A stretch of 48,488 bases of DNA from a virus (taxonomy: Duplodnaviria > Heunggongvirae > Uroviricota > Caudoviricetes): IMG/VR virus record IMGVR_UViG_2597490154_000001. The stretch is one strand, 5' to 3'. The position numbers were made by a program, and so were the translations under genes. The notes beneath the pieces are model-generated. The model worked only from the letters and a program-made list of their open reading frames with translations. It was not told the origin of the DNA and made no database searches. Of this stretch, positions 3,149 through 32,444 are shown piece by piece; the first letter of the stretch is position 1, and each line of letters begins with the position of its first letter.

Positions 3149-4139
3149 AACGCTTTTTGATGTTGTATATCAGAATGTAAATATTACCGCTCATATGTCA
3201 CCTGATGTTTTGTCAATGTCTTATACAGATAATGAAGATGGTCAGGTCGATGATATTTCCATTATATTAAAAAATGATGATGGGAAATGGTCTGGAGACT
3301 GGACACCTAAAAAGGGTGATTTTATTGATTTGAGCTTTAAGCCTATAAATCAAATCGTCCTTGAGTGTGGGAAATTCCAGGTGGATGGCATAACTTGCTC
3401 TGGACCACCTTCTGTTGTTGAGGTGACTGCTGTTTCTGTTCCTGTTTCATCAGGCATTAGACGTGATTTAAAAAGTAATGCATGGGAAAAAACAACTCTT
3501 AAAGATATAGCGACTTCTATAGCTAAATTAGCTAACCTTGAACTGTTGTTTCTTATTGATGGTGATAGTAATCCATATTATGCGCGTGAAGATCAAATGG
3601 AGGAAAGCGATTTAAAATTTCTCCATCGACTTTGCCAGGATGAAGGGGTGTCGTTAAAGGTCACTGATAGCCAATTAATAATATTTGCTCAAGAGATGTT
3701 TGAGCAAAAAGATCCTATCGCTACGCTTACGTTAGGTATTGATGAGATAATCAGATATAGCTTTAGCACACAATCTACAGATTTGTATAAAAGTTGCACG
3801 TGCAAATATCGCGTACCTAAAAAAAGAAAGTCGCTTTCGTATACTTGGGTAGATCCATCCGTAGAAGAAGGGGCGAATCTTAAGATAAGAAAACTGGTAG
3901 CTAATTTAGATGAAGCAAAACGTAAGGCAAAGGCTGCTTTGCGGCTTAAAAATAGATATCAAAATACCGGATCTTTAGTTTTGGTTGGAGACACCAGATT
4001 GGTAGCTGGTGTAACTATAAATCTGGACGGATTTGGTTCATTTTCTGGAAAATATCTTATATCGAAAGCTGTGCATTCAATTGGGGCTAGTGGTTATACC
4101 ACCTCGATTGATGTCCGAAGAGTAATTAATGGGTATTAA
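3138..4139 (+). CDS. tail protein D / late control D-like (baseplate hub)
   Basis: 333-aa ORF, GTG start overlapping upstream gene; position and size typical of P2 gpD / Mu gp44 family. Confidence 0.7.
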   Translation: MLRKTLFDVVYQNVNITAHMSPDVLSMSYTDNEDGQVDDISIILKNDDGKWSGDWTPKKGDFIDLSFKPINQIVLECGKFQVDGITCSGPPSVVEVTAVSVPVSSGIRRDLKSNAWEKTTLKDIATSIAKLANLELLFLIDGDSNPYYAREDQMEESDLKFLHRLCQDEGVSLKVTDSQLIIFAQEMFEQKDPIATLTLGIDEIIRYSFSTQSTDLYKSCTCKYRVPKKRKSLSYTWVDPSVEEGANLKIRKLVANLDEAKRKAKAALRLKNRYQNTGSLVLVGDTRLVAGVTINLDGFGSFSGKYLISKAVHSIGASGYTTSIDVRRVINGY

Positions 4140-12563: not shown

Positions 12564-12605
12564 ATGATTGTGGGTGTCTGGTTGGAAACTGACCAGATAT
12601 GGAAA

Positions 12606-12716
12606 CAAAAAGCCCGCAGATAAATCTGCGGGCTTCTTGCGACATCCACGGAAAACCAACAACAACAATCCATGGGCGCCTCGACAACTCCCATTATACG
12701 TTGGTTTTCCGTGGAC
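12606..12716 (-). ncRNA. candidate CopA-like antisense RNA of the IncFII-type replicon
   Basis: Large stem-loop (CCACGGAAAACCAAC ... GTTGGTTTTCCGTGG, 12647-12715) plus a hairpin at 12610-12634 that on the - strand is followed by a T-run; lies in the repA leader. Confidence 0.45.
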
Positions 12717-12730
12717 GCAAGAGCGAACAT

Positions 12731-13579
12731 ATGGATAGACCAATGCCGTCTCTACGTTCCGCTTACGTTTGTAATTTGTCGCCGGAGTTCCAGCCTCCAA
12801 AGCACCATACGCACAAGCTGCCGCTAGTGTTATCTGATGCTTTACAGCGCATTAATGGTCGTGATCTTACGTGTGAGGTTGCGTTCTACGTTAATCAGCC
12901 GTCAGAGCGGAAGCGCCGGATAAACGAGCATCGTCGTCGGGCGATTAATGCTGTGATTGCTGCGATTTTGCACCATGTAAACATCATTTCTAAGCGGGTT
13001 CTGGCCAGTGCTGAGGCGTTGGCTGATTTTTGCGGCCTGTCTACCGTATCCGAAGCTGGGAACAAGTCTATAACACGCTGTACAAGGGCGTTGTCGCAAC
13101 TGAAAGCGTTAGGTTTTATTGATTATGAACGTCGCTGGGATCGGGTGAATAAACAGTATTGGCCAGCGAAAATAGAGATTCGTGATCAACTGCTGGAAAC
13201 CGTTGGTATTACTGAACAAGCATGGAGACGTGCGGTTAGCCAGAAACTTAATTACTTCAATGCGAAGAATAGCGAACGGCTTAAAAAAGCGATAACGGAG
13301 GCTGATTATAAGCGTATTGTTATGCAGGAGCAGATGGAGAATGTATGGCGTCAGAGGAAGACAGCCAGAGAGATAAAGGCAAAACAGAAAGCAGCGGAGA
13401 GAGCTGCGCGTCTTGTTCAGGAAAAGGGAGAGGCCGAACTTCGTCATCAAATCACTAGAGAGGTTAGCCAGGAATTTGCTGATGGCATGTATCCTGGTGC
13501 TGACCTTGCATATTTACGATCCCTCGTTGAGCAGCGTTATAACAGGTTAAGAAAGACCTGGAAATCACTCCAACATTAA
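12731..13579 (+). CDS. repA: plasmid replication initiator RepA1 (IncFII RepA family)
   Basis: Clear similarity to R100/R1 RepA1 as I recall it (SITRxTRAL...LG(F/L)I.Y block, RRRAI motif); start set at internal ATG 12731 because 12599-12730 covers leader RNA structures. Confidence 0.85.
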   Translation: MDRPMPSLRSAYVCNLSPEFQPPKHHTHKLPLVLSDALQRINGRDLTCEVAFYVNQPSERKRRINEHRRRAINAVIAAILHHVNIISKRVLASAEALADFCGLSTVSEAGNKSITRCTRALSQLKALGFIDYERRWDRVNKQYWPAKIEIRDQLLETVGITEQAWRRAVSQKLNYFNAKNSERLKKAITEADYKRIVMQEQMENVWRQRKTAREIKAKQKAAERAARLVQEKGEAELRHQITREVSQEFADGMYPGADLAYLRSLVEQRYNRLRKTWKSLQH

Positions 13580-14797: not shown

Positions 14798-15041
14798 GGC
14801 TTTCGCGTCGAAAATGAGGCGAAACTGAAAACGAGATTTCATTAACAAATAAGCAACATAAAAAACGGTGGAAAACGCCCAGGAAAACATGATCTTTTGA
14901 GCGGATTTTTTAGATCCGACAATGAACGGTGATCCGGTGGTGCCGATAACGTCCATTATGTTAAATGGCCCCGTTTTTCTTGAAATTATAACTCACAGGT
15001 TATATAGTTAGTGATATAAACTACAGGTTATAGGATTGAGC

Positions 15042-15389
15042 ATGTGGACGGTACTTTTTAGCCAGCGATTTGACGGCTGGCTAAATGAGCAAGAAGACGC
15101 TCTTCAGGAAAAGGTTTTGGCTGATTTGAAAAAGCTACAGGTTTACGGACCTGAGTTACCCAGGCCATATGCCGATACCGTAAAAGGTTCTCGGTACAAA
15201 AATATGAAAGAGCTTCGCGTTCAGTTTTCTGGCCGTCCGATAAGAGCCTTTTATGCGTTCGATCCGATTCGCCGGGCTATCGTTCTTTGTGCAGGAGACA
15301 AAAGTAACGATAAGCGGTTTTATAAAAAACTGGTGCGTATAGCTGAGGATGAGTTTGCAGCACATCTGAACACACTGGAGAGCAAGTAA
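15042..15389 (+). CDS. RelE/HigB-family type II toxin (addiction module killer protein-like)
   Basis: ~115 aa; toxin-first arrangement followed by an HTH antitoxin overlapping at the stop; ORF track start 15036 is TTG, ATG at 15042. Confidence 0.6.
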   Translation: MWTVLFSQRFDGWLNEQEDALQEKVLADLKKLQVYGPELPRPYADTVKGSRYKNMKELRVQFSGRPIRAFYAFDPIRRAIVLCAGDKSNDKRFYKKLVRIAEDEFAAHLNTLESK

Positions 15390-15688
15390 TGAGAACATTA
15401 GATGAGGTGATTGCCAGCCGTTCACCGGAAAGCCAGGCGCGAATTAAAGAAATGGCAGATGAGATGATTCTTGAGGTCGGCTTGCAGATGATGCGTGAAG
15501 AACTCCAGTTATCACAAAAGCAGGTTGCTGAGGCGATGGGTATAAGCCAGCCAGCAGTAACAAAGCTGGAGCAGCGCGGAAATGATTTAAAGCTGGCGAC
15601 ATTAAAGCGTTACGTTGAAGCTATGGGAGGCAAATTAAGCCTGGATGTTGAGCTTCCCACAGGAAAACGAATAGCGTTTAACATCTGA
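15389..15688 (+). CDS. HTH (XRE-family) antitoxin, HigA-like
   Basis: 99-aa ORF with HTH (LSQKQVAEAMGISQPAVTKLE), start overlaps the toxin stop. Confidence 0.6.
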   Translation: MRTLDEVIASRSPESQARIKEMADEMILEVGLQMMREELQLSQKQVAEAMGISQPAVTKLEQRGNDLKLATLKRYVEAMGGKLSLDVELPTGKRIAFNI

Positions 15689-15730
15689 TCAGAACGAATG
15701 ATAAGCCCCTGTTGCAAAGGGGCTTTTTTG

Positions 15731-15851
15731 TGCTCATGGAATTATATAATTATAGATTTATATAAAAAGTGCTTTACAGGTGGGACAATATTTCCTAGTG
15801 TTATACCCGAAACCGAGCGATACCCGCCCTGGTTAAACCGGAGATAACCCG
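15731..15851 (+). promoter_or_regulatory. copy 1 of a triplicated promoter/leader cassette (AT-rich motif, TTTACA -35, conserved ~50-nt leader, SD)
   Basis: Near-identical to 25433-25544 and 32064-32174; ends at the ATG of the downstream gene. Confidence 0.6.
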
Positions 15852-16232
15852 ATGAGCATGATTAAAATCCGCAAAAACGCTTTCCTTAAAATTCAAACTA
15901 TCCTGGCTGGTTCTGTTGGCGTGATTTGCCGTTCTTCTTCAAGCCGCATCGATGACGGCTACGATGATGAGTATCGTGTGTCCTCGTGCGATGAGGCTTT
16001 AACCTGGCTGAAGGAGAATCAGGAACGTGCCCAGGTATATCTGGAAACAGAGAACGGCAATCAGATGCTGCGTATTAGCGGTCGTTATGGATTTGAAACT
16101 ACATTCATGGCCTATTTTAATCAGGCTTACTTTGACAAGGAGCTGGCCTGGTACACTGATCGCATGAGCAAAAGCGAGCCAGCCCCGATTACACCGCCGA
16201 ACAATAAATCATTTTTATTCCTCGTTAAGTAA
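15852..16232 (+). CDS. hypothetical protein driven by cassette copy 1
   Basis: 126-aa ORF with SD GGAG; no recognisable family. Confidence 0.5.
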   Translation: MSMIKIRKNAFLKIQTILAGSVGVICRSSSSRIDDGYDDEYRVSSCDEALTWLKENQERAQVYLETENGNQMLRISGRYGFETTFMAYFNQAYFDKELAWYTDRMSKSEPAPITPPNNKSFLFLVK

Positions 16233-16295
16233 ACACAATGCGTAAAGTGTCATTTTGACACTTTGCGAGTGTTAATATTGTGCGAGGAGGATGCT

Positions 16296-16568
16296 ATGAC
16301 GGGTTATGAATTGAAATTATGGCGTCGTGGGATGAACTGGACGCAGGAGCGAGCCGCCGAAGAATTTGGGATATCGTTGGCTACATATAAGCGATATGAG
16401 AAGGGGGAGCCGCCGAGGGTCATTGAGATGGCCATTCGCGTTCTGTCATTTGACGATATGGTTAAGGATCTTTCACGCCTTGATAAAGACGCGATTCTGT
16501 TAAGGCTGCAAACCCTTGTATGGGAAAAGGTTAAAGTGTCGTCAGAATTGGAACAAGGGATCAAATGA
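16296..16568 (+). CDS. small HTH (XRE-like) DNA-binding protein
   Basis: Strong SD GAGGAGG before ATG 16296; HTH-like WTQERAAEEFGISLATYKRYE; ORF track start 16263 is TTG. Confidence 0.55.
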   Translation: MTGYELKLWRRGMNWTQERAAEEFGISLATYKRYEKGEPPRVIEMAIRVLSFDDMVKDLSRLDKDAILLRLQTLVWEKVKVSSELEQGIK

Positions 16569-16615
16569 TCCTTTACGGATCGTTTTCTGGTGGTGTAATG
16601 TAAGCGCCAGAAAGA

Positions 16616-16640
16616 CAAAAACCGCCTTGCCGGGCGGTTT
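16616..16640 (+). terminator. rho-independent terminator
   Basis: AAAAACCGCCTTGCCGGGCGGTTTT. Confidence 0.7.
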
Positions 16641-17340
16641 TCAGTCTGAAATTTAAATCTTGCTTGGTAGGCTGGATTTAAAAAGACACCTCTTGATTGG
16701 GGCGGCTTTCTTGCGTCTAAAGATAATCAAATCTTTTTGCGCCTGCAACCCCTTTTTTACTGGTGCACGTTTCAGACTCACGCTCGCGTCGTTGTCTTTG
16801 CTACTTCGTTGGGTTCGGTGTTTTTGGGCGAAGTGGCGCGCGGGTATGCGTACAAGGGGAAAGTGTGCTGACGCAAGCCAGGAACAGCGATCTAAACTAA
16901 GTCGAGTCTGAGAAAGGCAGGAGTGCGACAACTCGCCTGTGCTCAATGAGCAGAAGAAGGTATATCAGACGACCAATGGCATGATTGTGGGCCACAGGGC
17001 GCACACGGCAGCGAAGCATTGGAAACGATGTGGAGCTATCTGGTGGCATGAGTTCCGGTACTCGATCTCGAGCTTTTTTTGATGCTTTTGAGAAGGGGCC
17101 GGAACTCCGGTAAAGGGCACCCTGTATGGGGGGAGGGGGGGGTGTGTCTGAAGGGTGGTTATCGGTTATGGTGGAATTATGATGCGTAGAAAAGCGAGTT
17201 TGCTGCAAGCTATTGGGTCCATTATTTCTTTGTTTCCGGCAGTTGATCATTTTCGTCATATGGCGACACGTTCCAGTATGGGCTTGGTGCGTGACGCTGA
17301 CGCTATTCGAAAGGATTTTCAGAAAGTCTCTGGTGTTGAT

Positions 17341-17373
17341 AAGAGAGAAAAGAGTAAGGGGCCGTAGCCCCTT
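17341..17373 (-). terminator. rho-independent terminator of the antirepressor operon
   Basis: Hairpin AAGGGGCCGTAGCCCCTT with T-run on the - strand, directly after the ant stop. Confidence 0.6.
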
Positions 17374-17377
17374 GTAG

Positions 17378-18520
17378 TTATGGTCTGCTTTTCTGTGCCA
17401 GCTTATCAGCACATGTTTTTATCAGATCCTGTAGTGTCCTGGCTGGCAGGTTTGCATCCAGTACGCTGAGTATGCTGTTGTGATCAGCCTGGTCGATTAC
17501 TTTGCCTGTCGGTGGTAGTAGCTTGAGCTGAGGATTCAGGTTTTCGTCAAAACTGATAAGTGCTCTGGCGTTTCTGAGCAGATCAAGAAGTAAGGCTGAT
17601 ATCACATCATCTTTAGTCATTGTTGGTAGATTTAGTGCCGCTTTAGTTTTCTCCGTCGCCTTGTCAAACTCTTTGATTAGTGTCTTGCGGTAGTTTGGTT
17701 CCGTTAATAGCCGATGATGTTCTGTTGCCGTTCGGATAATCTTTGTTTCCTGATACAGTCGGTTGTATAGCATTCGCTCGTATTCTGCCTTTAACACGCT
17801 GCTGATAGCGTTAAAGGCTTCAATGTAGGCCAGCTTGATATCCTTCACGCCTGGACCGTCGATACTTTCCATGAGCAAGGTAAATCCGTCTTTTGTCATG
17901 CGATAGATTGTTATTTCGCGGTCGCTTCCTTCCAGCGGTCGTTGTTCTTTAAAGAAGTGACGCGCCGCAGCCGTGCGAGGAATGCGTAACGCATCGATGG
18001 CCATAACGATGGAATTGTTTGTGGTGCTGAATGCTTGGGCAACATCGGCTGAGGTTGTGAGTGGCTCGTTGTTGCACACCTTAACGTAATACATTGGTTT
18101 AGCGTTGAGCGTATCGACAACCTCACGAGCATTGTTTGGTGAGACGGTTACGGTCGCGGCCGTTTGCGCGTTCTGGTTGAAGTAGCAGTCTTCCAGCCGT
18201 TCGAATACATCCCATGCCTGATCGGTTTCGAGCATTTTAGCGTGACGTGCAGCCCCGCGTTCGGTCCAGAGGATGAGCTTTCTAACGTTATTCGCGATGG
18301 TTTGAAAATCTCTTAAAGAGATTTTCAAACTTTGGAGATCTGTACCTTTTACAACTATGAAATGTTTTCCTTCTGTAAACCGGGACTTATTACGGTGGTG
18401 ATTTCTGTGAAGACATTCGACGCTACAGCCATATAGTTTGGCAAGCAGCTCCGTGGTGATAACGGGGAGCTGGTTATGCAGGATAGGCTGTAGGGTGTTA
18501 ACGGTCGGAAGCGTTTTCAT
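17378..18520 (-). CDS. phage antirepressor (KilA-N/ORF6N-type N-terminus with Ant-like C-terminal part)
   Basis: 380-aa ORF; N-terminal region resembles antirepressor N-domains; start overlaps the upstream small ORF (ATGA). Confidence 0.6.
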   Translation of the reverse strand: MKTLPTVNTLQPILHNQLPVITTELLAKLYGCSVECLHRNHHRNKSRFTEGKHFIVVKGTDLQSLKISLRDFQTIANNVRKLILWTERGAARHAKMLETDQAWDVFERLEDCYFNQNAQTAATVTVSPNNAREVVDTLNAKPMYYVKVCNNEPLTTSADVAQAFSTTNNSIVMAIDALRIPRTAAARHFFKEQRPLEGSDREITIYRMTKDGFTLLMESIDGPGVKDIKLAYIEAFNAISSVLKAEYERMLYNRLYQETKIIRTATEHHRLLTEPNYRKTLIKEFDKATEKTKAALNLPTMTKDDVISALLLDLLRNARALISFDENLNPQLKLLPPTGKVIDQADHNSILSVLDANLPARTLQDLIKTCADKLAQKSRP

Positions 18521-18708: not shown

Positions 18709-18865
18709 TGTGATGATTCCCTTAAAGGTTAAGGATACTCACCACCGTCAGGTTCCAATCATTGGGTGGTGAGACGTGCAGGGTTGGAACTACCGGACAC
18801 AATGACGAACCGGCGAGTCTTACGACTCCCCCGCACGCCCCACCATAATTTGGGTGTAGCAGTGC

Positions 18866-18960
18866 TTTACGCATAAAAAAACCGCTAACGCGGTATGCGC
18901 CATTGTGTCTACGGGGTTCCAATCCCGACCGTAGATTTTGCTACGGCTAGGAAAGTGTCC
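18866..18960 (-). ncRNA. candidate c4-like antisense RNA with its own terminator
   Basis: Hairpin 18911-18934 displays GGTTCCAATC in the loop; - strand terminator (ACCGCG..CGCGGT then T7) at 18866-18890; complementary elements at 18750-18760 and 18783-18790 in the icd-like leader. Confidence 0.35.
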
Positions 18961-19868: not shown

Positions 19869-20252
19869 TGCTGATCGGATTCGCGGTCCTTTCAGCATAA
19901 CGTCGTTGTACTAATACAACCACGCAAGCACAAACAGCAACTACATTCTTACCCAACTGAGGTGAATAGTCCACTATTCATATAAAAAAATTTAGCTCAT
20001 TAGCTCATGCAAAATGAAGGTTTTTAACTTATTTACGTGTAATCTTATGTAATAAAAGCGTTTTTTATTCCTTCATTATGAAGGGTATGACGTGTAATAT
20101 GGCTTGGGGCCTTTCCGCCGATTCGCACCCGGGCACTGACTTTCAGGAAAGGATTATCCACTTGCCGTACCACGCAGGCACAAACAGCGTGCTTGCTCTC
20201 GCGTCATTTTCGTCGGTGGGGATGCCGTGAAACGGCCTGTAAGGGCCACACA

Positions 20253-20375
20253 ATGAAAAAATACTACATGTGTATTTTTATCGTTGTTACTGGGGCTTTG
20301 TTTACGCCACATGGAGAGGGTTGGAAGATTACTGATAACGCTCTGAATGTGACGATAAACATTAGCAGCAAGTAG
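20253..20375 (+). CDS. small hydrophobic protein (40 aa), function unknown
   Basis: MKKYYMCIFIVVTGALF...; SD-like AAGGG 8 nt upstream; own terminator immediately downstream. Confidence 0.35.
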   Translation: MKKYYMCIFIVVTGALFTPHGEGWKITDNALNVTINISSK

Positions 20376-20380
20376 CGATT

Positions 20381-20404
20381 AGGCCCCTTCGGGGGCCTTT
20401 TTTA
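20381..20404 (+). terminator. rho-independent terminator
   Basis: AGGCCCCTTCGGGGGCCT followed by TTTTT. Confidence 0.65.
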
Positions 20405-20625: not shown

Positions 20626-20874
20626 TTACTTCTGGTTGTATTGAGCCTTGAGTAACTCAAAAGATTTTGTCAGCACTTCTTTCAATGACATATCCATTGA
20701 GCTGGCGAACGTTTTGTACTCGCGTTTAAATTCAGGGTCGACGTTAAACGCCATTTGTGCCCCACCTGATTTGGTTCTGGCTGGCGTTTCAGTCGGGTCG
20801 AAAACCTGCGGTTGTTCGATCGATGGCGGTACGCCTTTGCTGTTCTTCTTTGGTGGTTTTGATGGTGCGGCCAT
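20626..20874 (-). CDS. ParG-like small partition protein (basic, probable ribbon-helix-helix)
   Basis: 82-aa ORF immediately downstream of the ParA-like ATPase. Confidence 0.5.
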   Translation of the reverse strand: MAAPSKPPKKNSKGVPPSIEQPQVFDPTETPARTKSGGAQMAFNVDPEFKREYKTFASSMDMSLKEVLTKSFELLKAQYNQK

Positions 20875-20888
20875 GTGTATCCTCTCTT

Positions 20889-20921
20889 ATATAAATCTAT
20901 AAAACTATAATTATATATTAC
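20889..20921. repeat. AT-rich motif site (TATAAATCTATAA / ATAATTATATA family) between the two par genes
   Basis: Member of a dispersed motif family with at least 8 sites in the window. Confidence 0.6.
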
Positions 20922-21593: not shown

Positions 21594-21699
21594 ATTATAT
21601 AATTCTATAAATCTATATTTATAGAATGAGGTAAGCATAACCAACTTTTTGGCGGATGAAAAGTGTTTTATATAATTATATAAATCTATAATCATATAA
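21594..21699. repeat. two AT-rich motif sites upstream of the partition operon (candidate centromere/operator)
   Basis: TATATAATTCTATAAATCTATA at 21594-21627 and TATATAATTATATAAATCTATAA at 21669-21699. Confidence 0.55.
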
Positions 21700-24997: not shown

Positions 24998-25375
24998 GTG
25001 AGACGCGATCTGGATAGCTTGTTTGAGCTATGGGCGCTGTGGGTGCGCAATGGCTGCAACGCCCGTAGCGGTTTCGCGTCGATGTTAGAAATGATGATGG
25101 TTACGCGTTGCCAGTTTACCGGAGGGGGCGGCGCACCAAATGACTCACTGGAAACCAGTATCGAGGGAGCGGTGACGGCCCTCACGGTAGTTGATGAGAC
25201 TGCGGCGCTGGTTGTCCGAATTGAATACGGGGCGTGGGAGATTCGGGGCCTCGACATAAATGCACCGCATATTGATAAAGCCCACGCCCTTTCTCTTAGT
25301 CTCAGACAGTATCGCCGGAAGCTGGCAAAAGCCAGGGCGTATGTTGTCGACTATTTGAAAAAGCGAAGAGAGTGA
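24998..25375 (+). CDS. candidate Q-like late antitermination protein
   Basis: 125-aa ORF just upstream of a repeated promoter cassette; LFELWALW motif resembles the small Q-like family as I recall it; weak call. Confidence 0.35.
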   Translation: MRRDLDSLFELWALWVRNGCNARSGFASMLEMMMVTRCQFTGGGGAPNDSLETSIEGAVTALTVVDETAALVVRIEYGAWEIRGLDINAPHIDKAHALSLSLRQYRRKLAKARAYVVDYLKKRRE

Positions 25376-25432
25376 AAGTGTCATTTTGAGCTGTTTTGAT
25401 GGTGTGTAGACATCGGGAACATCGAAAATCTA

Positions 25433-25544
25433 TAAATATATAATTATAGATTTATATAAAAAGTGCTTTACAGGTGGGAAAAAATTTCCTAAGGTTATAC
25501 CCGAAACCGAGCGATACCCGCCCTGGTTAAACCGGAGAAATCTG
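25433..25544 (+). promoter_or_regulatory. copy 2 of the triplicated promoter/leader cassette (candidate late promoter)
   Basis: Identical over ~112 bp to 32064-32174; lies directly after the Q-like gene. Confidence 0.6.
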
Positions 25545-26612
25545 ATGAATAAACAAGTAATTATTTCTGACTGGATCAACAACCCTAACAGCCTGTTAAG
25601 CACTGATACTGGCTACCTATTACGCCATGTTAATGGTCGTATGGTCAAAAGCGATGAGCACGAAACCTTTTTCTTTGTTGAAGACGATGGGCGTATCTAT
25701 GAGGATGGTTACTCTTATGAAGCCCAAACTGGTTGTATCCCTGCGGAGCTGGTGGACGTAACAGAAGATCTGCGTAAAGCATGGCTTGAACAGCAGCAGC
25801 GCGGAGATGATTACGTAAACACCTATCAGGAACGCCAGAACGCGCGTCTTGCCCGATATATTGCTCGTGCAGAAAAAGCCAGAAAAGAAGGTGCGGTAGC
25901 GCATAAGCGAGCGCATGACCTGTTGGATGTGATCCCGTTAGGCCAGCCGATTTTAGTTGACCATTATAGCGCGAAAGGCCATCGCCGCCGTTTGTCTAAA
26001 GCTGATGCGTTATTCAGAAAAGCGTTTGTTGAATGCGAAAGTAAAGCATCACACTACGAGAGCAAAGCCGCAGGTGTTGGTCGTAATGGAATTTCGTCTG
26101 ATGATCCTGATGCGCTATTTAAGTTGCTTCGTAAGCTGCAAGGCTGCATGAAGTCACACGTCAAAATGAAGGCCGCAAATAAGGCCATTCGCAAATACAA
26201 AAAAGACCAATTACAGCAGCTTTCTGCATTAATCGATCTCAGGTTTACAGAAAGCGAAGCCAAAGAGTTACTGGCCGGAGATTTCTGTGGGCGCATCGGA
26301 TTCCCTTCATACGCACTGAGCAACAATAACGCCGAGATCAAACGACTACAGAGCCGTATTAAGGAGCTTGAATCGGTCAAGTCTGTAACAGGAGCACAGC
26401 GCGAAGAATACGACGACTTTTCTATGAAGATAGATCCAGAGGATAACCGCATCCTGTTTTATTTCCCTGGCAAACCAGAGGCAAACATTCGTTCGCTGCT
26501 TAAATCACGCGCCTTTAAGTGGAGTCCAACCCGTAATGCATGGGTTCGCAAGATTACTCCAAATGCCCTGGCTGATGCCCGATATCTGAAAGAATCGCTA
26601 TTGAAAGCCTGA
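25545..26612 (+). CDS. hypothetical protein (355 aa, coiled-coil rich)
   Basis: Driven by cassette copy 2; no confident family assignment. Confidence 0.5.
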   Translation: MNKQVIISDWINNPNSLLSTDTGYLLRHVNGRMVKSDEHETFFFVEDDGRIYEDGYSYEAQTGCIPAELVDVTEDLRKAWLEQQQRGDDYVNTYQERQNARLARYIARAEKARKEGAVAHKRAHDLLDVIPLGQPILVDHYSAKGHRRRLSKADALFRKAFVECESKASHYESKAAGVGRNGISSDDPDALFKLLRKLQGCMKSHVKMKAANKAIRKYKKDQLQQLSALIDLRFTESEAKELLAGDFCGRIGFPSYALSNNNAEIKRLQSRIKELESVKSVTGAQREEYDDFSMKIDPEDNRILFYFPGKPEANIRSLLKSRAFKWSPTRNAWVRKITPNALADARYLKESLLKA

Positions 26613-26644
26613 CAGTAAGCCTACGGCGGGATGTCTCCCGCCGT

Positions 26645-26677
26645 ATATAGAATTATATATTTATATAAATGTATAAG
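26645..26677. repeat. AT-rich motif site
   Basis: TATATAGAATTATATATTTATATAAATGTATAA. Confidence 0.5.
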
Positions 26678-30798: not shown

Positions 30799-30922
30799 TA
30801 CCGCCTGTGATTGGGTAAAGCCCATCTACCTGACTGATCACGATATCGATGTTATGGACCGCCAGACAAAGAAAGATATTCTGGCTCATAACAGGGCATG
30901 GGAAATCAACTGTCCAAAGTAA
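30713..30922 (+). CDS. o-spanin (Rz1-like lipoprotein) overlapping the i-spanin gene in another frame
   Basis: 69-aa ORF with signal peptide and lipobox-like LIASC. Confidence 0.65.
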   Translation: MYSRVLTIWLMTMLIASCGSRGSVPVVVDTACDWVKPIYLTDHDIDVMDRQTKKDILAHNRAWEINCPK

Positions 30923-30953
30923 TATATATTTCTATAATTATATAAATATATAG
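30920..30953. repeat. AT-rich motif site upstream of the tRNA
   Basis: AATATATATTTCTATAATTATATAAATATATAG. Confidence 0.5.
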
Positions 30954-31090
30954 TTACAACATTCTATGCGCTTTTCTCATTAGCGCACGCATCAACCATG
31001 TTTGTCTGATATGCCGCCGCGCCCAAAAATCCTGAATTTATTGGCTGGGATTTTCGTGCGCGGCGCCACACCAGACAAACAAATCAAATA

Positions 31091-31166
31091 TGGCCCCTTA
31101 GCTCAGTGGTTAGAGCAGGCGACTCATAATCGCACGGTCATCGGTTCAAGTCCGGTAGGGGCCACC
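31091..31166 (+). tRNA. tRNA with CAU anticodon, most like tRNA-Ile2 (lysidine) rather than initiator tRNA-Met
   Basis: Folded by hand: 7-bp acceptor stem GGCCCCT/AGGGGCC, D-stem GCTC/GAGC, anticodon loop CTCATAA, T-loop GGTTCAAGTCC, encoded CCA; G1-C72 pair excludes initiator. Confidence 0.9.
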
Positions 31167-31475: not shown

Positions 31476-32063
31476 ATGGAGGCAATTGCATTGTTTAATC
31501 TGATTTATGCAGATCCCCCCTGGGAATACAAAGATAAGTGTAAGGATGGGAATCGTGGAGCTGGTTTTAAGTATCCAACGATGAAAGCTGAGGATATTGC
31601 TCGTATTCCTGTCTGGCAGCTTGCTAATCCTGAATCGTGTTTGTTGGCCATGTGGTGGGTTCCGACTCAGCCAGAAGAAGCGTTGCTGGTGGTGAAAGCA
31701 TGGGGATTCAGGCTTATGACCATGAAGGGCTTCACATGGAACAAATGTGGTAGCCGACAACCAGATAAGCTGGTGATGGGGATGGGGCATATGACTCGTG
31801 CAAACAGTGAAGATTGCTTGTTTGCGGTAAAAGGCAAATTGCCGACCCGCCTTGATGCGGGGATCATTCAGTCGTTTACATCGCCTCGTCTGGAGCATTC
31901 TCGGAAGCCTGATGTGGTTCGTGACAAGCTGGTAAGGCTGTTAGGTGATGTTCCTCGTATTGAGCTGTTTGCTCGCGGTGATTTACCTGATGGTTGGCAT
32001 GGCTGGGGCAACCAGTGCAATGGAGGTATCCAGTTGCATGATGCTCTCTGGCAAGTGGCATAG
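31476..32063 (+). CDS. MT-A70 family N6-adenine DNA methyltransferase (orphan)
   Basis: 195-aa ORF with catalytic DPPW motif (IYADPPWEY) near the N-terminus. Confidence 0.8.
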   Translation: MEAIALFNLIYADPPWEYKDKCKDGNRGAGFKYPTMKAEDIARIPVWQLANPESCLLAMWWVPTQPEEALLVVKAWGFRLMTMKGFTWNKCGSRQPDKLVMGMGHMTRANSEDCLFAVKGKLPTRLDAGIIQSFTSPRLEHSRKPDVVRDKLVRLLGDVPRIELFARGDLPDGWHGWGNQCNGGIQLHDALWQVA

Positions 32064-32174
32064 AATTATATAATTATAGATTTATATAAAAAGTGCTTTA
32101 CAGGTGGGAAAAAATTTCCTAAGGTTATACCCGAAACCGAGCGATACCCGCCCTGGTTAAACCGGAGAAATCTG
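32064..32174 (+). promoter_or_regulatory. copy 3 of the triplicated promoter/leader cassette
   Basis: Identical to copy 2 over ~112 bp. Confidence 0.6.
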
Positions 32175-32444
32175 ATGAAAGTACAAGACCGTGAAGTAGT
32201 AAAAAACCTCCTGCAATACCTGACCTCAAAAAACCTGACGGGCAGCGTTGAGTTCCGTGAAGCGTTAAAACATTTCAACGTCACTACGGTTTATCGTTGG
32301 GAAAACAAACATTCTGAAAGACCGTATGTGGTGGATGTTTTTGCGCCTGATATTGAGTGCGGTTTTGAGCGTCATTCGTTCAAGGAGAAACATTCTGCTG
32401 ATTTTTTTTGTGAGGTTGTATGTGCGGCAGGAGATGATGAGTGA
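32175..32444 (+). CDS. hypothetical small protein driven by cassette copy 3
   Basis: 89-aa ORF with SD GGAG. Confidence 0.45.
   Translation: MKVQDREVVKNLLQYLTSKNLTGSVEFREALKHFNVTTVYRWENKHSERPYVVDVFAPDIECGFERHSFKEKHSADFFCEVVCAAGDDE

Follow-up and report, generated by a model that had tools for sequence, protein, structure and literature searches.

We analysed positions 15,731 to 16,640 of a DNA window of 48,488 bp (IMG/VR record IMGVR_UViG_2597490154_000001), which is a complete circular phage-plasmid of the Caudoviricetes. An earlier note on this sequence described the locus as an operon in which one copy of a promoter cassette drives a 126-aa protein of unknown function and a 90-aa helix-turn-helix (HTH) protein, and likened it to the loci of anti-CRISPR genes (acr) and their associated regulators (aca). 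The cassette copy, the small open reading frame (ORF126), the HTH gene (HTH90) with its strong Shine-Dalgarno (SD) sequence and the terminator are indeed all present, and are arranged as follows.

15737-15863, + strand: cassette copy 1, comprising iterons, -35, spacer, -10, leader, SD and ATG (alignment of repeat family D2)
15741-15766, no strand assigned: iteron array of cassette copy 1 (pattern scan)
15773-15778, + strand: -35 element TTTACA of cassette copy 1
15796-15801, + strand: -10 element TAGTGT of cassette copy 1, preceded by a 17-nt spacer with a GGA..TCC dyad
15840-15843, + strand: SD sequence GGAG of cassette copy 1, 3' of a conserved leader of ~50 nt
15852-16232, + strand: ORF126 (126 aa, phrog_8090), from the ORF list, PHROG match, homologues and an AlphaFold2 (AF2) model
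16241-16267, no strand assigned: palindrome CGTAAAGTGTCA-TTT-TGACACTTTGCG (12+3+12 nt) between the ORF126 and HTH90 genes
16270-16278, + strand: extended -10 element TGTTAATAT, two bases past the palindrome, as read from the sequence
16284-16290, + strand: SD sequence GAGGAGG of HTH90, 5 nt before the ATG
16296-16568, + strand: HTH90 (90-aa XRE/HTH_3 regulator, phrog_6962), from Pfam, PHROG, RefSeq annotation and homologues
16505-17150, no strand assigned: ultra-conserved non-coding block of ~600-650 bp (five-lineage alignment)
16616-16643, no strand assigned: bidirectional GC-rich 10-bp hairpin terminator (terminator scan, folds of both strands)

The reading that we favour, at somewhat better than even chances, is that these features belong to two transcription units that can occur apart from each other, housed in a polymorphic cargo slot within the maintenance/immunity arm of the phage-plasmid. 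The first unit would be cassette copy 1 with ORF126, and the second HTH90 under its own promoter.

The variable slot and the HTH gene

We compared the slot upstream of the HTH gene among related elements. The cassette and ORF126 occupy it in E. coli, Salmonella and K. aerogenes. In a 47-kb element of Citrobacter amalonaticus (L031), HigA is followed by a terminator, an iteron array, the palindrome and the HTH gene, and the promoter, the leader and ORF126 are all missing. Yokenella and a related contig (L023/L032) carry HicAB as their toxin-antitoxin (TA) pair, and a minus-strand 103-aa gene fills the slot. The accessory location that the earlier note gave to the locus, between the replicon and TA genes and the antirepressor, proved to be apt, in that ORF126 sits there in a truly variable slot. 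Two further elements bear insertions in this region. Plasmid p48 of E. coli strain 1428 has 567 bp inserted between the -10 and the SD sequence of the HTH gene (L002, ~3538-4104). The minus strand of this segment encodes a 141-aa protein that matches no family and has a membrane helix at its N terminus. In Yersinia phage vB_YpM_41, 323 bp are inserted precisely at the start codon of the HTH gene (L003, ~3597-3919); this insertion resembles a miniature inverted-repeat transposable element and is bounded by 22-bp terminal inverted repeats (GGGGTTCCGTGGGAATTTCTGC). Because the palindrome and -10 are kept where ORF126 is missing, and because insertions occur between the genes, ORF126 and HTH90 are better described as adjacent modules than as an obligate pair. 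No Pfam or PADLOC assignment was obtained for the slot neighbours (the 141-aa transmembrane, 103-aa, 214-aa and 264-aa proteins), which gives no grounds for labelling the slot a defence or anti-defence island.

We aligned the palindrome between the two genes across six lineages (two E. coli variants, K. aerogenes, Salmonella, Yokenella and Citrobacter). A GTGTCA-N3-TGACAC core and a TGnTA element at constant spacing from it were found in all six, including the two that lack ORF126. Symmetry was maintained in 91% of cells, which were paired, and it is in the outer arms that both sides vary, 4 of 15 positions being altered on both arms. This palindrome is the sole HTH-type site in the window; cassette copy 1 contains no HTH-type inverted repeat, even when up to 3 mismatches were tolerated. 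We propose from these sequence features that the palindrome is the operator of HTH90. The arrangement found here, a small XRE HTH protein whose conserved palindrome overlaps its own promoter, is at the sequence level that of an autoregulated XRE repressor. Transcribed at the 3' end of the ORF126 mRNA, the palindrome would also fold into a hairpin (-20 kcal/mol, z = -2.9), without a U-tract; because of this hairpin, the HTH gene could be reached by read-through from the cassette but would not depend on it. The terminator at 16616-16643, which closes the HTH unit, is better on the minus strand (a scan call with a good T-run) than on the plus strand, where only 4 U follow the hairpin, and from the other side it stops transcription arriving from the antirepressor.

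A 15-nt sequence (AAAGTGTCATTTTGA) identical to the left half of the palindrome plus its spacer lies at 25375-25389, ~40 bp before cassette copy 2 and immediately beyond the final gene of the early operon. We did not use it as evidence for a second HTH90 site, since it has no counterpart at the equivalent position in Salmonella.

HTH90 matched Pfam HTH_3 (E = 5.8e-7) and also HTH_31. Its nearest PDB sequences were MqsA and HipB, at non-significant E values of 0.06-0.2, and no Aca chain was found among PDB sequences at E<=1. Relatives with 42-57% identity occur outside the phage-plasmid family in >1,800 enterobacterial plasmids, most of them conjugative. For example, in pOXA-48-type IncL plasmids the gene for an HTH protein 42% identical to HTH90 over 84 residues overlaps and directly precedes a Mrr_cat 'restriction endonuclease' gene in a co-directional array (L029, 4543-6556). 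On other contigs the relative is followed either by a 150-aa gene and then a Mrr_cat gene, or by an AAA_15/AAA_21 ATPase and a 290-aa protein, and on one further contig it is divergent from a Schlafen-type helicase gene. The co-directional arrays in which HTH90 relatives are embedded together with the Mrr_cat gene or with the ATPase and the 290-aa protein lie on conjugative or ParM plasmids (L029, as above; L027, 3501-6216; L025, 2752-5289). Local hmmsearch on these plasmid loci found no ORF126 relative.

Such arrays may represent HTH-controlled defence-like operons in plasmid maintenance regions. The plasmid contexts of its relatives point to HTH90 being a common plasmid XRE regulator, closer to a controller protein heading defence-like operons than to an Aca protein. 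It resembles restriction-modification controller (C) proteins and plasmid XRE regulators as an XRE protein of 80-90 aa whose gene is directly preceded by a palindrome that overlaps the promoter; HTH90 had no match to a C-box family or to a PADLOC control protein. Unlike in the IncL-type XRE operons, no endonuclease gene follows HTH90 in the window, where a terminator and the non-coding block come next. In other words, a co-transcribed downstream effector is absent from the window and is seen only with the 42-57% identical relatives (Mrr_cat, AAA_15/21).

ORF126 and its promoter cassette

ORF126 is a real gene. It begins at the ATG shared by the cassette copies, behind the GGAG SD sequence, and homologues with 64-71% identity retain both frame and length, with a nonsynonymous divergence (dN) of 0.26 versus a saturated synonymous divergence (dS). 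We compared amino acid identities between the E. coli and Salmonella elements, and found 66% for ORF126, 65% for CI and 53% for Ant, versus 96% for ParA, 93% for the ParG-like protein, 89-90% for HigA/HigB and 85% for RepA among the maintenance genes. ORF126 diverges fast, like the immunity genes and unlike the maintenance genes.

The AF2 model of ORF126 shows an a-b-b-a-b-b-b-a domain (residues ~5-107) with a mean predicted local distance difference test score (pLDDT) of 77, rising to ~90 in the core, followed by a disordered C-terminal tail of ~18 residues that ends in the hydrophobic motif LFLVK. ORF126 had no match in Pfam, NCBIfam or PADLOC and an unannotated one in PHROGs; no fold match was found in PDB or BFVD, and a profile search of PDB sequences was empty. 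The earlier note was thus right to call the function of the protein unassigned. We discarded the idea of a DNA mimic, because the protein is not acidic (16 acidic versus 16 basic residues, counted from the sequence).

A profile search of 1.8 billion cluster representatives recovered 38 relatives at E<=1e-3, each representing one cluster at 50% identity. The family is defined by an N-terminal domain of ~100 aa with the motif IRKNAxKKI...GII...DDS...WL...G.Y.F..F, in which R7, N9, I14, W52 and L53 are invariant and D35, G77, Y79, F81 and F85 nearly so; past the domain come a variable linker and a short hydrophobic C-terminal motif. Profile search, alignment and local hmmsearch on the loci all place ORF126 in this family. 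On 30-45-kb phage-plasmid-like contigs of Vibrio, Photobacterium and Pontibacterium, the relatives lie beside IncFII repA, beside parA or after a Rha antirepressor; in isolated Vibrio phages they lie between replication genes and an MT-A70 methylase; and one is on a conjugative-type plasmid with ParAB, TraM and a primase. No HTH90-type neighbour was found at the loci of the distant homologues. Judged by its sequence relatives and predicted fold, ORF126 falls into an alpha/beta domain family of phage-plasmids, Vibrio phages and plasmids that is so far undescribed.

Four distant homologues carry a C-terminal LPD25 domain, with scores at or just below the gathering threshold. LPD25 is a functionally unassigned domain from the polyvalent proteins of conjugative elements, which have been proposed to act as early-invasion effectors (PMC5512222). 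The ORF126-type domain resembles the LPD domains of polyvalent proteins (Iyer et al. 2017, PMC5512222) in that, besides being fused to LPD25 in the four distant homologues, it occurs solo in phages and plasmids, as the same paper describes for several LPDs. It differs from them in having no match of its own to any Pfam model, whether of an LPD or otherwise.

The cassette that precedes ORF126 (repeat family D2, ~127 nt) occurs three times in the window, at 15737-15863, 25431-25557 and 32061-32187, and ~117 nt, including the ATG start codon, are near-identical among the three copies. Copy 2 heads the replication/lysis operon, which runs from DUF3560/primase-like genes to holin and lysin genes, and copy 3 heads the late operon of small ORFs, ParB-like, terminase and structural genes. 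Copy 1 departs from the other two in the spacer dyad and in the -10, which reads TAGTGT instead of their TAAGGT; the Salmonella cassette has TATGGT. The cassette promoter is of the sigma-70 type, but its -10 is weak by its sequence, and the earlier note's description of a strong promoter did not hold: TAGTGT matches at only 3/6 positions, and a sigma-70 scan made no call. The Salmonella plasmid pAR-0407-1 has three cassettes at the three equivalent positions (L035, 17641, 26771 and 35044), near-identical to each other and distinct from the E. coli type. Because the Salmonella copies are homogenised within the genome and unlike the E. coli type, concerted evolution of promoter and leader is indicated. 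Alignment by eye of the ~50-nt leader between Salmonella and the window gave only about six differences, despite the synonymous saturation of coding DNA. As a target of the C4 or IsrK antisense RNAs of the element the leader was rejected, the duplex energies being no better than those of shuffled sequences.

Four tandem 8-bp units (TATAKAWW) open cassette copy 1, just upstream of the -35. Pattern scanning found arrays of this kind in only eight places of the element, all intergenic. Besides the array of copy 1, they are the following.

20886-20917, 21594-21627 and 21667-21698: iteron arrays around parA
25427-25460 and 32059-32090: iteron arrays of cassette copies 2 and 3
26644-26675 and 30921-30954: two further iteron arrays

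One of the parA arrays lies downstream of parA and the other two bracket the par promoter, whose layout is that of the cassette (array, 6 nt, -35, 17-nt spacer with dyad, -10). The operators in the intergenic region between CI and the early operon differ from the iterons. In Citrobacter the iteron array of the slot is kept, although the promoter and ORF126 are missing there.

The omega protein of pSM19035 and ParG of TP228 are ribbon-helix-helix (RHH) partition proteins that bind short tandem iterons in several promoters. As in these systems, the 8-bp tandem iterons of the window surround the parA promoter and immediately precede the -35 in several promoters, and a small protein with a disordered N-terminal tail is encoded beside a small ParA. 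Unlike in them, the extra iteron promoters here head phage lytic operons and a cargo gene. The small protein has 82 aa (20626-20874, - strand), and its single-sequence AF2 model, a disordered 46-residue N-terminal tail followed by two helices, is compatible with a ParG/omega-type protein; the RHH fold and iteron binding that characterize omega and ParG are putative here. Since the same iterons bracket the par promoter, the 82-aa protein would be the likeliest iteron binder. The iterons common to par and the cassettes, together with the shared promoter architecture, suggest that one iteron-binding protein serves both partition and the lytic operons, and the cassette, as far as its sequence goes, fits iteron control of the omega/ParG style.

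Interpretations of the locus

We propose the following mechanism for the two-unit arrangement. An iteron binder, for which the 82-aa ParG/omega-like protein beside parA is the candidate, would govern the cassette. Because the replication/lysis and late operons start with this cassette too, ORF126 would be made when the lytic or entry programme switches on. ORF126 would be dispensable cargo, with no catalytic signature and with a flexible docking-type C-terminal tail, and most likely works through a protein partner that it binds while the element establishes itself or grows lytically. Among the categories of function, counter-defence or establishment ranks first for it, although we put this forward tentatively and at well below even chances. 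HTH90 would be a backbone XRE repressor transcribed from its own extended -10 directly downstream of the 27-nt palindrome, to which an HTH90 dimer probably binds in negative autoregulation. Control of cassette copy 1 by HTH90 is not predicted from the sequence.

Several observations weigh against this picture. The ORF126 and HTH90 genes occur together in all 71 of 71 E. coli copies of the element. The gap between them is 63 bp, they are on the same strand and the hairpin lacks a U-tract, so that they may be co-transcribed as an operon in E. coli. The p48 insertion splits the palindrome and -10 from the SD sequence of the HTH gene, an arrangement that a simple model with a dedicated HTH promoter does not readily explain. 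Both promoters were read from the sequence, and that of cassette copy 1 went uncalled in the sigma-70 scan. The function suggested for ORF126 is drawn only from context and from the domain fusion in distant relatives. Finally, the 82-aa protein, the candidate iteron binder, had no Pfam or PDB match.

Aca proteins are defined by repression of the acr promoter via inverted repeats inside that promoter (PMC6765145, PMC13551039). Were the locus a true acr-aca-type anti-defence operon, ORF126 would inhibit a host defence and an Aca-like HTH90 would shut off the cassette after entry, which we regard as quite improbable. The likeness is one of layout: a small HTH gene with a strong SD sequence directly follows a small orphan gene on the same strand, an inverted repeat is nearby, the slot in this mobile element is variable, ORF126 evolves fast and LPD25 fusions occur among its distant relatives. 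The intergenic hairpin alone is not incompatible with such an operon either, because Aca-associated RNA motifs have been predicted between genes inside acr-aca operons (PMC13551039). However, the inverted repeat is at the HTH gene's own promoter and not in that of the upstream gene, cassette copy 1 having none of this type, and the upstream promoter is a thrice-repeated, element-wide cassette that also drives two large lytic operons. In addition, the HTH gene persists with its palindrome and -10 in two lineages without ORF126, the ORF126 relatives have no HTH partners, and the HTH90 relatives precede Mrr-like endonuclease or AAA ATPase genes instead of following small orphans. HTH90 has no similarity to the solved Aca proteins among PDB sequences, and there was no PADLOC match. 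What stands of the acr-aca-like architecture proposed in the earlier note is therefore the gene order, the orphan gene and the variable slot, whereas the cassette promoter lacks the inverted repeat and the genes are separable. Its two-gene operon was likewise not confirmed, since the HTH gene has its own conserved palindrome and extended -10 and occurs without ORF126 in other lineages.

The Citrobacter and Yokenella lineages share the backbone yet lack ORF126, and this also argues against ORF126 being a lytic-cycle or maintenance accessory factor that acts in RepA/ParA-dependent replication or partition, or with the replisome, and has no defence role. Its divergence is moreover far above that of RepA and ParA, and no neighbour is constant across its contexts. 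Consistent with such a factor are the promoter cassette in common with the replication/lysis operon, the homologues adjoining IncFII repA, parA/parB or phage replication-initiation genes in unrelated elements, and a domain without an enzymatic motif that ends in a docking-like C-terminal tail; overall, we consider it unlikely. That ORF126 and HTH90 form a toxin-first type II TA pair in the style of HigBA or MqsRA, beside the higBA-like pair, is barely credible. As in those systems, a toxin-sized gene comes first, followed by an XRE-type HTH gene of fitting size, and the location in a maintenance region and the palindromic operator would suit a TA pair. MqsA and HipB are the nearest solved sequences to HTH90, with weak similarity to their HTH domains (non-significant, as given above), and there was a sub-threshold match to the NCBIfam MqsA family. 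Unlike a toxin-first TA pair, though, the two genes are separable and share no operator-promoter: the HTH gene is found alone, ORF126 homologues are found without it, insertions between the genes are tolerated, the operator lies downstream of the putative toxin, and ORF126 is under its own cassette promoter, with no match to a toxin family or fold.

A bolder variant of the two-unit arrangement gives the ORF126-type domain the part of a new counter-defence or establishment module, common to phage-plasmids, Vibrio phages and conjugative plasmids, fused in some cases to LPD25, and in this element switched on with the lytic programme by the partition iteron binder. The ParG-like protein, comparable to the RHH regulator Aca14, would then take the place of HTH90 as the true Aca-like regulator of the locus. 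We give this variant little credence. If it were true, plasmid partition would be coupled to the control of lytic and anti-defence genes.

The conserved block, the surrounding element and implications

The non-coding block at 16505-17150 starts inside the 3' end of the HTH gene, includes the bidirectional terminator and bounds the ORF126/HTH90 module. It is 88-99% identical in nucleotides across E. coli, Salmonella, Yokenella, Citrobacter and K. aerogenes (88.5% versus Salmonella), compared with 53-72% amino acid identity for the flanking genes. No conserved ORF was found in the block among the five lineages, and no Rfam family matched within 15690-17400. RNAalifold predicted 149 pairs, 5 of them with compensatory changes, of which 3 are consecutive in one hairpin. 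The block is restricted to the phage-plasmid family of the window, and may be a structured RNA or a cis-acting site.

The surrounding features include the following; the RNA genes all scored above the Rfam gathering threshold.

12599-13579: IncFII RepA, followed by two small ORFs
15036-15688: Gp49/HigB-like toxin and HTH antitoxin (higB/higA-like pair), upstream of ORF126
15703-15725, + strand: intrinsic terminator of the higB/higA-like pair (terminator scan), the left edge of the cargo slot
18762-18850, - strand: C4 antisense RNA
18875-18947, - strand: IsrK RNA
20105-20403, + strand: ryfA RNA
31092-31164, + strand: tRNA

The Salmonella, Yokenella and Citrobacter lineages too have a hairpin ahead of the slot, equivalent to the terminator at the left edge. 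Past HTH90, the map continues through a non-coding stretch, the minus-strand ORF6N/Rha antirepressor operon, ryfA, the small ParA with the 82-aa protein, and the CI-like repressor; beyond the latter come the rightward early operon, the replication/lysis genes, the MT-A70 methylase and the late/structural genes. C4 and IsrK precede a 63-aa ORF and the ORF6N/Rha antirepressor, an arrangement like the immI module of P1.

The locus is 100% identical to E. coli ATCC 25922 plasmid pATCC25922_4 and to several further plasmids of 48,488 bp, and Yersinia phages vB_YpM_39/41/44 are ~98% identical to the window. The element was present in 71 of 5,426 complete E. coli genomes (~1.3%), including the reference strain ATCC 25922. 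A literature search on the accessions, the phage names and the phage-plasmid family found nothing relevant.

These results indicate that a small gene followed by an HTH gene is insufficient for an acr-aca-like call. The locus is an ordinary cargo gene of an undescribed family beside a probable XRE autoregulator; the latter belongs to the backbone, whereas the small gene is an insert that can be swapped and is served by a cassette found across the element. If ORF126 is an anti-defence or establishment factor, it would represent a new family without a fold relative that extends across enterobacterial phage-plasmids, marine Vibrio phages and plasmids. For the regulation of the phage-plasmid family itself, the cassette and iteron layout and the conserved block are probably the more informative leads.

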